The notes beneath the pieces are model-generated. The model saw only the letters and a list, made by a program, of their open reading frames with translations, had not been told where the DNA came from and made no database searches. From positions 715,156 to 779,155 of the forward strand of contig NZ_KB235903.1 of the NCBI RefSeq assembly GCF_000332155.1: a stretch of DNA of 64,000 nt. Direction: 5' to 3'. Below, piece by piece: positions 20,979 through 23,384 of the stretch (the stretch's first letter is position 1; the number at the start of each line of letters is the position of its first letter). The stretch is from Kamptonema formosum PCC 6407 (lineage in GTDB: Bacteria; Cyanobacteriota; Cyanobacteriia; Cyanobacteriales; Microcoleaceae). The position numbers and the translations under genes were made by a program.

Positions 20979-23384
20979 ATGACACCTGTAGAAGTTGAAA
21001 AAACACCAATGACTGAGCAAGAAGTAGAAAAGCTGTGGGAAGCATTTAAAATGTTTGATGCGGACGGTAGCGGTGCTATTTCAGCAGAAGAACTGGGTCA
21101 AGTGATGCGATCCTTGGGACAGAGCCCCAGCGAGACAGAACTGCGGGACATGATTAAAGAAGTAGATGTTGACCTGTCGGGAAGTATCGATTTTGAAGAA
21201 TTTAAAGCGTTAATTGTCTCCCAACAAGGCGATCGCACCAGCCGCCTAAAACTAGCATTCAGCGTCTTTGATGAGGACGGCAGCGGTCAAATCACCGTCA
21301 ACGAGCTGCGTAGTGTGATGAGTCAGTTTGGGCTGACAGATAAAGAACTTAATGAGATAGTACAAGAAGTCGATCATGATGGCGATGCCTCCATTGACTT
21401 TGAAGAGTTCTGTAAACTGGTGCCCGAAGAGTCCGAGATCGCTACAGGTTATCAAGACTCACCCATTCCCCCCACCACTTCACCTCAGCCAACTGCAACT
21501 GATGGGAGTACAACAGCCACCGAAAGCACACCCACGATCGCCAACGAGGTAGAACCCAGCACCACACCCACACCACAGGAAACACTCAGCGAAATAGATG
21601 CAGAGGTAGCAAGACTCACAGAACTACTCGCCAAACACCCACAGAACGAGACAAAGCGCGGTACATCGCGCTTACAGATGCAAATTGGTCTATTTCGCCT
21701 AATCCAGGGAGCCGCCTATCGCTGCTTCCGCGAGAGTTTCTCCGCCAACCACGAAACTCACCTGCGCGTCAGAAATCTACCCTACAGAATCACTGATTTC
21801 GTGCGGTTTGTGAAGACTGCGATCGCGCTTTACAAAGGATTAGGGATCGTCGAACCAGCTTGCAACCCCTTACTGGATGCAGTGGTAGAATCAATTACTA
21901 ATGAGTATGCTCGACTAGAAGACCGGATTAAGAATTGGAAAGCGATCGAAAAAACCCCAGAAATGTTGGCAGAACAAAAAGCCATGTTAGAGGCGCGGGG
22001 TAAATCTGCCACTGTCAAAGAAAAGTTTGCCGCCGGAGTTGAGTTTGCCATCACCATCAAGAAAAAACGTCTCAACTTGCGCGATGTTGCTGAAGGTGTA
22101 CTTGCCATCAATGAGCTCAACCGACTCAGGAAGATGGAACTCAATCAAGAGATTGCTCCAGAAGTAGAGCAATCAGCCGGAGATCCCAAAGATTACCTCA
22201 AAAAGTGGAACCGAGTCCTCCTCTCTGATGCCTCCGAACAAGTCGATGGTGCAATGATGCCAGTAGCTTATTGGTATGAGGAATTTATGCCAAAACTGTT
22301 GGCTGCTTTCAGCGTTAATACCGTCGCCGATATCCAAAGTAATACCGTTCCTGACGAAGCAGCTTTGGACAAGTGGTATCAATCTACTAAGGAGTCAGGA
22401 GAATTTAACGTTTATGGTGCCGATGTTGCAGACGGCTTTTCCAAATGCACTCCCCAACAAAAACTAATGCTTAAACAAGCTTGGCGACTCACTCACAACT
22501 ACTTAAATGGGGTGCAAAAACGGCGGGAACGTCAGGAATTTGGACGCGACTCTGGCGCACTTTCCCATTATGTATCATTCATTGATATATCCCTGGGCCG
22601 CAGCGATATTAAGGATGCTCAGATGCGCGTCAGTTTTCCATACTATATCGGGCCAGCGGTTTGGCGTTTCTTCCACACCAGTGCGGAAATTGTATCTACT
22701 AAAACGCCTGAGAAACAAAAAGCCTTGATAGCCGTTTTCAAGGAGTTTTTTCAACTGTTTGCCACGATGTATCCCTGTCCCTACTGTCGCCATCATCTCA
22801 ATGCCTATGTTGTGCAGAATAAGGAAGTGGAAATGTACCCTGTGGAGTACCTCGTACTCGGCCGCGACGTGAATCTTACTGACTTTAAGGTATCCCTAGA
22901 AGCAAAGCTTTCTACTGTGGTTGATGGCCCTTCTCTGCGCTTATTTTTCTGGAAGTTACACAACACTGTGTCTTCATCTATTGCTCGTTCGGAAGAGTGG
23001 TATCACAAGGATGAAAAAGCTTTTTACACTACTCGCTATTGGCCGAGTCTTGACTCGGAGTTAGCGCGTGCCAAAGCACTCAAACATATCAGCATTTCAA
23101 CCGATCGCATCTATGGTCTTTATGGGATGCTGAAGCCTGCATCGCGGCTTTCGGCTGTGAGAACTACATTGCAAAAGCTTTTGGAAAAAGGCGATATCGA
23201 AGGGATTAAGGCGGCCTGTACGATCGCAGAAGATTATATTAAGGATTTGGAGGAGGCTGCGATCGGCGGAAATTTCCTACAAGATACATATTACTTCGAT
23301 CCTGACCTGGTTGATAAAGCTCCACACTTTACTCCTGATGAAGAACAATTTGCCCGCAGTGGTGTGTTTGTGGAGGTTGTTTAA
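20979..23384 (+). CDS. Fusion protein: calmodulin-like 4x EF-hand + Pro/Thr linker + unknown region + Erv1/ALR-like CxxC sulfhydryl oxidase domain
   Basis: EF loops [36 protein letters not shown] and [12 protein letters not shown]. C-terminal [10 protein letters not shown]...[18 protein letters not shown]...FFWKLHNTV matches the Erv/ALR W..H...YPCxxC...W..HN.V pattern. The ATG at 20979 follows ggaga. Confidence 0.8.
   Translation: [801 protein letters not shown]

Follow-up and report, generated by a model that had tools for sequence, protein, structure and literature searches.

A single open reading frame (ORF) in a 64,000-nucleotide stretch of the Kamptonema formosum PCC 6407 genome (contig NZ_KB235903.1, forward-strand positions 715,156 to 779,155; hereafter the window) encodes an 801-amino-acid (aa) protein with a new architecture in the Erv family. 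The gene occupies window positions 20979..23384 on the plus strand, including the stop codon, and its product combines a calmodulin-like domain, a tentatively assigned psiErv bundle, an extra helical subdomain and an Erv domain. From the sequence we infer the binding of Ca2+ and flavin adenine dinucleotide (FAD), oxidase activity, and a coupling of Ca2+ to this activity. The reading that we prefer, and that in our judgement stands an even chance of being right, is that the protein is a Ca2+-responsive cytoplasmic Erv-type flavoprotein thiol oxidase, built as a pseudo-dimer with a tethered calmodulin-like domain.

The N-terminal module (21009..21425, plus strand; residues 11-149) is composed of two lobes with four EF-hands and was identified by Pfam, by matches in PDB and by its identity to calmodulin. 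All four EF loops are canonical, with 12 residues each, and their Ca2+-ligand positions are invariant or nearly so in 18 orthologues from Oscillatoriales and Nostocales. In loop 1 (21057..21092, plus strand; residues 27-38), the ligand positions are nearly invariant in filamentous cyanobacteria. Among the 18 homologues, D63, D65, S67, G68, I70, D71 and E74 are invariant in loop 2 (21165..21200, plus strand; residues 63-74), D98, S102, I105, T106 and E109 in loop 3 (21270..21305, plus strand; residues 98-109), and D132, G135, I139 and E143 in loop 4 (21372..21407, plus strand; residues 132-143). The Pfam family EF-hand_7 matched with an E-value of 1.1e-32, and further Pfam EF-hand families matched as well. 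When compared with vertebrate calmodulin using BLASTP, 68 of 142 residues were identical (48%; 72% positives, E 5e-48), and in the N-lobe 38 of 69 (55%). Relative to calmodulin, there are two deletions of two residues, one in the central linker and the other in the linker between EF3 and EF4. The calmodulin query in this comparison agrees with the PDB calmodulin alignments obtained from a phmmer search. In that search against all PDB sequences, the 60 best matches were all calmodulins (E ~1e-36, covering residues 11-149). Membership in the XopAW type III effector family (NCBIfam NF041410) was rejected, as only an EF-hand pair is in common and the score of 75 bits is below the cut-off of 120.

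Calmodulins are thus the nearest among all solved EF-hand proteins, and the module shares with them the four EF-hands and the two lobes. However, calmodulin is a free protein of 149 aa while the module described here is joined to an enzyme, and its 48% identity is far below that found among true calmodulins. Because it is fused within an 801-aa protein, is only 48% identical and has shortened linkers, we classify the module on its sequence as calmodulin-like, not as calmodulin sensu stricto.

The C-terminal region carries an Erv/ALR core (22638..23078, plus strand; residues 554-700), recognized by both Pfam and the family profile, with an insert of ~30 residues between helices 3 and 4. The Pfam family Evr1_Alr (PF04777) matched residues 560-617 with an E-value of 2.4e-10 and 41.1 bits (gathering score, 27.6). 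This match is partial (profile positions 2-57 of 93) because the insert separates the CxxC helix from the HNxV helix. The motifs G-x3-W-x3-H, aromatic-Pro-CxxC and H-N-x-V contact the flavin in Erv enzymes, and in a family alignment of 33 members with 22-79% identity to the window protein, the Erv signature positions are the most conserved columns. Invariant or nearly invariant positions are G558, W562, H566 and E570 in helix 1, Y598-P-C600-P-Y-C603-R at the start of helix 3, and W658-K659-x-H661-N662-x-V664 in helix 4. The helix-1 motif W562-x3-H566 (22662..22676, plus strand), invariant in these diverse members, aligns with W..LH of Erv1 structures, and the putative redox-active disulfide C600-P-Y-C603 (22776..22787, plus strand) with YPCxxC of Erv1/ALR. 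In helix 4, H661-N662-T-V664 (22959..22970, plus strand) was placed by a sub-alignment to HNxVN of Erv1; W658, K659, H661 and N662 are invariant, and the fifth position of HNxVN is Ser instead of Asn in the window protein. C600 is present in 32 of the 33 members and C603 in 31, and they are the sole cysteines conserved throughout the family. C295, C490 and C747 are single cysteines kept mainly in filamentous cyanobacteria.

A profile built from the Erv core only was then compared with PDB; an alignment with N-terminal overhangs returned mainly calmodulin. The core profile matched Arabidopsis Erv1 (AtErv1, E 4.4e-7), yeast Erv1 (E 1.4e-6), Mimivirus R596 (E 7e-4), ALR (E 8.5e-4), Erv2 (E 5.5e-3) and 3gwl, a FAD-linked sulfhydryl oxidase chain (E 0.03). 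In each of these matches, the block of helices 1, 2 and 3 was aligned, and the HNxV block was aligned separately and in order. QSOX was barely detectable by sequence (E 3.1). No other catalytic family was found in the Pfam scan at E-values up to 1. Judged by these profile matches and motifs, the window protein is a true member of the Erv family (PF04777).

The two regions are connected by a low-complexity linker rich in Pro, Thr and Ser (21426..21590, plus strand; residues 150-204). It varies in length, is the sole poorly conserved part in the alignment of 18 homologues, and has a predicted local distance difference test score (pLDDT) below 30 in a full-length AlphaFold2 (AF2) model. This segment of ~55 residues is probably a flexible tether. 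The initial annotation, which had been made from the letters of the window, described four canonical EF loops close to calmodulin, a Pro/Thr-rich linker and an Erv/ALR pattern with a CxxC at the C-terminus. Each of these elements was recovered: the loops start at residues 27, 63, 98 and 132 in a module 48% identical to calmodulin, the linker is real, Evr1_Alr scores above its gathering threshold and all Erv motifs are present. The HMMER comparison that it proposed with EF-hand_7 and Evr1_Alr was significant for both families, and all the peptides that it quoted were found in the translation (residues 21-75, 561-570, 595-607 and 656-664).

For the part of the protein outside the EF module, an AF2 model of residues 205-801 was built from the diverse 33-sequence alignment. 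It is all-helical, with a pLDDT of 87.8 and a predicted template modelling score of 0.89. A Foldseek search of this model against PDB returned nothing significant. The two-bundle fragment of QSOX was aligned over nearly its whole length with the non-EF model (13% identity), and the window protein shows the helical-bundle fold of Erv enzymes. Because of this nearly complete alignment, the non-EF part most likely holds a degenerate psiErv bundle and a catalytic Erv bundle, which would form a single-chain pseudo-dimer. The probable psiErv-like bundle lies at 21660..22154 on the plus strand (residues ~228-392, tentative boundaries), a placement that follows the order of the helices and a comparison with the Erv core by hhalign; the latter was collinear over 110 columns but not significant (E 0.21), and it puts C295 opposite C603.

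Two further regions of the non-EF part have no known relatives. The first is an extra conserved helical subdomain between the bundles (22176..22622, plus strand; residues ~400-548), with pLDDT mostly above 90 and no Pfam match, in which the positions WY/F.P.LL/W/Y..K/LS.Y..F are conserved family-wide. The second is a C-terminal helical hairpin with a conserved acidic and aromatic tail (23100..23381, plus strand; residues 708-801). The AF2 helices of the hairpin span residues 708-737 and 740-764, and P786, E788, E789, A792, R793, G795, F797, V798 and E799 of the tail are invariant in 18 homologues.

The ATG at 20979 is backed by the N-termini of homologues in the alignment of 18 orthologues, and a GGAG at 20966..20969 (plus strand), 9 nucleotides before it, is the likely ribosome-binding site; a TTG at 20964, five codons 5' of the ATG, is a possible alternative start. 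Neither a signal peptide nor a transmembrane segment was seen in the N-terminus, which is hydrophilic, or in a Kyte-Doolittle hydropathy scan, whose maximum (19-residue window) is 1.2. Given the absence of a signal peptide and the low hydropathy, the protein is predicted to be soluble and cytoplasmic.

These features allow comparison with the known members of the Erv family. Like QSOX, the window protein has a catalytic Erv domain with a CxxC beside flavin motifs and an N-terminal accessory domain on a flexible linker, and it may also be a single-chain pseudo-dimer of the kind seen in the C-terminal half of QSOX. Unlike QSOX, it has no thioredoxin (Trx) domains, second CxxC, signal peptide or transmembrane segment, and it adds a subdomain of ~150 residues between the bundles and the ~30-residue insert in the Erv core. 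Moreover, its accessory domain is a putative Ca2+ sensor whereas that of QSOX is a redox relay. The window protein is not a QSOX, since it lacks both the Trx domains and the secretion signal. With Erv1, ALR, Erv2 and the oxidases of nucleocytoplasmic large DNA viruses (NCLDV), it shares significant homology and retains G-x3-W-x3-H, YPCxxC and HNxV. Those enzymes, however, are domains of ~100-190 aa that assemble into homodimers, and a flexible tail usually bears a CxxC or CxC shuttle disulfide, while the window protein is an 800-aa single chain with a large insert and without conserved shuttle cysteines. Viral members of the Erv family also act in the cytoplasm.

The architecture is shared by a whole family. 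Close orthologues have 785-808 aa, 73-99% identity and an identical domain set, and were found in Phormidium/Kamptonema, Microcoleus, Oscillatoria PCC 7112, Lyngbya, Tychonema, Nostoc, Calothrix, Scytonema, Tolypothrix, Stigonema and others. Cultured strains that possess one include Oscillatoria nigro-viridis PCC 7112 and Tolypothrix PCC 7101. Copies in Nostocales and Oscillatoriales are 73-85% identical to the window protein, and because this level of identity extends over 800 aa between cyanobacterial orders, the protein appears to be under strong selection. A pattern-based scan covered 185,579 species genomes, in which relatives were confirmed at 256 places. The 80 distinct loci that were fetched from these all belong to cyanobacterial or metagenome-assembled genomes, and each named genus is filamentous; the closest are Kamptonema copies with 97-98% identity. 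In addition, an exhaustive HMMER search with residues 160-801 yielded 238 clusters at 50% identity. The fusion described in the initial annotation is thus no isolated case but represents a family present in 256 species genomes.

This distribution also bears on whether the protein could be a non-catalytic relic (pseudo-enzyme) or an artefact of annotation or contamination, including the label 'histidine kinase'. Some database entries do name its homologues histidine kinase or signal transduction protein, and a few distant members of the family (P0187 and P0145) lack the CxxC. On the other side, conservation is highest in the columns of the CPYC and the flavin-contact motifs, the gene lies in a bacterial context beside nif genes, and a 99%-identical protein (P0001) is encoded on a 3.9-Mb contig named Phormidium nigroviride. 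With relatives at 256 places, this explanation is largely refuted and we consider it very improbable. No HisKA or HATPase_c match was found in Pfam at E-values up to 1, and the histidine kinase label was rejected. Eukaryotic contamination was rejected on the nif neighbours, the P. nigroviride protein, the 256 places and the GC content of the gene, which is 0.47 compared with 0.42-0.53 in ten other genes checked; the GC content at third codon positions is 0.46, and both values are inside the range of the neighbours.

Beyond the close orthologues, the EF module is less well preserved than the oxidase module. Forms of 754-862 aa have a homologous but degenerate N-terminal EF domain and occur in Synechococcales/Synechococcus, in Rhodobacterales and in the streptophyte alga Chlorokybus. 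An example from Rhodobacterales is a 752-aa orthologue encoded on a 284-kb plasmid of Gemmobacter aquarius (L089; NZ_CP028919.1, 5476-7734) and annotated as 'ERV1/ALR-related protein', which has mostly degenerate EF loops and 45% identity over the oxidase module. Forms of 618-673 aa have no EF-hands and begin with 'MG', a possible N-myristoylation signal. The identifiable 'MG' forms are eukaryotic: one from the choanoflagellate Didymoeca, one EukProt entry and one on a contig with Hikeshi and Ariadne genes. Longer low-complexity forms constitute a separate clade in a neighbour-joining tree. Since the oxidase module persists with a degenerate EF domain or none, Ca2+ control cannot be essential to the core function; it would be an added layer, which filamentous cyanobacteria keep intact and other groups have lost or lack.

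The 'MG' forms would fit a different role for the calmodulin-like domain. The oxidase could be constitutively active, with the domain setting its place or its substrate by Ca2+-dependent docking on a membrane or a client, in place of the myristoyl anchor proposed for the eukaryotic homologues. The 'MG' start is found in 7 of 49 family representatives of at least 500 aa, an eighth has an internal MGC, and at least three are eukaryotic; moreover, the 'MG' forms are without an EF domain at the very place where bacterial forms carry one. The long flexible tether also fits a capture arm, like the Trx arm of QSOX. However, the 'MG' start is the only sign of myristoylation, no target helix or partner was found, and many bacterial orthologues have degenerate EF loops. 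We regard this explanation as fairly unlikely. One helix was considered as an IQ motif and rejected by eye, as its Arg spacing is off by one; the same helix is conserved in homologues without an EF domain, which also counts against an IQ motif.

Under the preferred reading, in which the protein is a Ca2+-responsive thiol oxidase, a rise of cytoplasmic Ca2+ would load the four EF loops, and the Ca2+-loaded calmodulin-like domain would open and bind to the oxidase module itself or to a client. Docking would switch on or target thiol oxidation by the CPYC/FAD centre. There, C600/C603 would take up electrons from the thiols of the substrate and hand them on to FAD, from which they would reach O2, with formation of H2O2, or a different acceptor. 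In this way the EF domain would either switch the activity or select clients.

Several observations weigh against this mechanism. A cytoplasmic thiol oxidase amid reducing conditions is unusual. Among the 33 aligned members, no second (shuttle) disulfide like those of Erv1, Erv2 or QSOX is conserved, and the protein contains no second CxxC and no Trx-family Pfam domain at E-values up to 1. The picocyanobacterial and Rhodobacterales orthologues have kept the oxidase module and lost most Ca2+ ligands, and the EF domain is absent from the eukaryotic homologues with an 'MG' start. A contact between the EF and oxidase modules could not be resolved in the full-length AF2 model, which was based on 18 close homologues and reached a pLDDT of 47. 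Finally, the neighbours of the gene in the window (nif/Mop, sulfiredoxin-like and Dps genes) were found together with it in none of the 88 fetched loci.

Some of these points would fit an Erv-like module that acts as a non-O2 thiol:acceptor oxidoreductase or as a redox sensor, in which case the protein would integrate Ca2+ and redox signals instead of forming disulfides. Its electrons might go to a cytochrome, a quinone or a further protein, or the module might sense how reduced the thiols are. Such a role would be compatible with the predicted cytoplasmic location, with the lack of a conserved shuttle disulfide and with the presence of sulfiredoxin-like, Dps and nif cluster genes nearby; Erv1 and ALR also favour cytochrome c over O2. 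Nevertheless, this neighbourhood was seen neither in the 88 fetched loci nor in the Kamptonema relatives, and no candidate acceptor was found. We consider a non-O2 role quite improbable.

The evolutionary origin of the fusion was examined with a midpoint-rooted neighbour-joining tree built from 529 columns with 100 bootstraps. All bacterial sequences, together with Chlorokybus, P0132 and the MGC-start protein P0143, form one clade with 100% support, which sits among eukaryotic forms on a weakly supported backbone. The two linker deletions are common to the bacterial forms, which indicates that the fusion arose only once. Both the nesting in the tree and the 48% identity to calmodulin favour, without proving it, the view that the EF module, and perhaps the complete fused gene, came from a eukaryote; transfer in the opposite direction, from cyanobacteria to algae, may instead have taken place. 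Beyond cellular organisms, a 1140-aa protein of Yasminevirus sp. GU-2018 (A0A5K0UAY3 in BFVD) was matched by Foldseek to the non-EF model in its entirety (E 7e-20, 21% identity) and is mislabelled 'Histidine kinase', as are several cyanobacterial orthologues. A broader proposal, possible though on balance doubtful, is that these proteins represent a third, hitherto unrecognized lineage of single-chain psiErv-Erv flavin oxidases beside QSOX and baculoviral P33, present in cyanobacteria, Rhodobacterales, diverse eukaryotes and a giant virus, which would serve filamentous cyanobacteria as a Ca2+-gated cytoplasmic generator of disulfides or H2O2, with the EF domain or the fusion perhaps derived from a eukaryote.

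In the window, a nif cluster lies directly upstream of the gene (4061-18030). It includes a nifB-like radical-SAM/NifX-domain protein (4061-5566), an Oxidored_nitro pair presumed to be nifDK (9253-12436), a second, nifEN-like Oxidored_nitro pair (13026-15708), a ThiF/hesA-like ORF (16661-17548) and a HesB/IscA-like ORF (17659-18030). A small Mop/TOBE-like ORF, read by eye and starting with MKISARNVLKAKV, follows on the minus strand (~20003-20230). Between it and the fusion gene is an unusually long AT-rich intergenic region of ~750 bp (20230-20978), in which no Rfam match was found. Directly downstream are a sulfiredoxin-like 86-aa ParB_N protein with GCHR (23794-24054) and a Dps/ferritin-like protein (24151-24714).

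In Nostocales and in PCC 7112, the surroundings of the gene are wholly different from those in the window. Even two Kamptonema relatives (L006 and L007; 93-95% nucleotide identity) have only the gene itself and short adjoining stretches in common with the window (20859-23461). On the upstream side the similarity ends after 35-120 bp and on the downstream side after 3-77 bp, and the flanks are unrelated. In L007, the gene is preceded by contractile-sheath-like proteins and followed by a Ser/Thr kinase-WD40 protein and a Ca2+/H+ exchanger-like protein. Such sharp homology boundaries could reflect single-gene mobility or rapid rearrangement. As the neighbourhood is not conserved, no functional inference was drawn from it.

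Elsewhere in the window, a 946-aa type-II P-type cation ATPase (58293-61133, plus strand; Cation_ATPase_N/C, E1-E2) is encoded ~35 kb from the fusion gene; this class includes Ca2+ pumps. A 619-aa protein with a GerE/LuxR helix-turn-helix, TIR_2 and AAA_35 (36218-38077, plus strand) is a possible defence or signalling NTPase. In addition, a full-length HEARO RNA (Rfam RF02033) was detected at 62642-62856 on the plus strand, with 152 bits compared with a gathering score of 83. The next ORF (62980-63441) encodes a Psb27 homologue, not HNH/IscB, and the RNA appears to be orphaned.

The logic proposed for the window protein has parallels outside the Erv family. In the NADPH oxidases NOX5 and RBOH and in calcium-dependent protein kinases (CDPKs), a covalently attached EF-hand or calmodulin-like domain controls a catalytic module, which in NOX5/RBOH is a flavoenzyme that makes reactive oxygen, and an EF-hand NOX5 exists in the filamentous cyanobacterium Cylindrospermum stagnale. 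The window protein may follow the same principle of EF-hand control over an enzyme, but such regulation is hypothetical here. Its catalytic fold is not related to theirs, and neither an autoinhibitory nor a junction helix was found in it. Ca2+-binding proteins have been described in filamentous cyanobacteria. One of them, CSE, contains two EF-hands and is mostly confined to filamentous species (PMC13578307, PMC7065334); in Nostoc, CSE and CcbP are stated to be the only Ca2+-binding proteins analysed so far (PMC13578307, 2026). The window protein resembles them as a likely Ca2+ binder of this group; however, CSE is small and stands alone, CcbP is not a canonical EF-hand protein, and neither has an enzymatic domain.

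That Erv oxidases are predominantly eukaryotic and viral, as stated in the initial annotation, agrees with PMC10598087, where the presence of PF04777 in Nostocales, Oscillatoriophycideae and Rhodobacterales, and in a small number of further prokaryotes, receives a passing mention. In NCBI, JGI and UniRef, the homologues are labelled 'EF-hand domain-containing protein', 'ERV1/ALR-related protein', 'thiol oxidase' or, wrongly, 'histidine kinase'. A literature search for an EF-hand/Erv fusion, a bacterial psiErv or a cyanobacterial sulfhydryl oxidase found no characterisation.

If active, the protein would be a cytoplasmic Erv-type oxidase in a prokaryote; to our knowledge, cytoplasmic Erv oxidases are otherwise known only from large DNA viruses. 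It would also widen the Erv family by a QSOX-like pseudo-dimer without Trx domains. Owing to its high conservation and its homologues in eukaryotes and a giant virus, the family is a useful case for studying the transfer of signalling modules between domains of life. Bacterial Ca2+ signalling is poorly understood, and the protein offers a candidate enzymatic output for it in the form of a flavin-linked thiol oxidase. If the proposed function is true, a transient of Ca2+ would be turned directly into a thiol-redox signal within a bacterium, which would surprise specialists in both disulfide formation and bacterial Ca2+ signalling.

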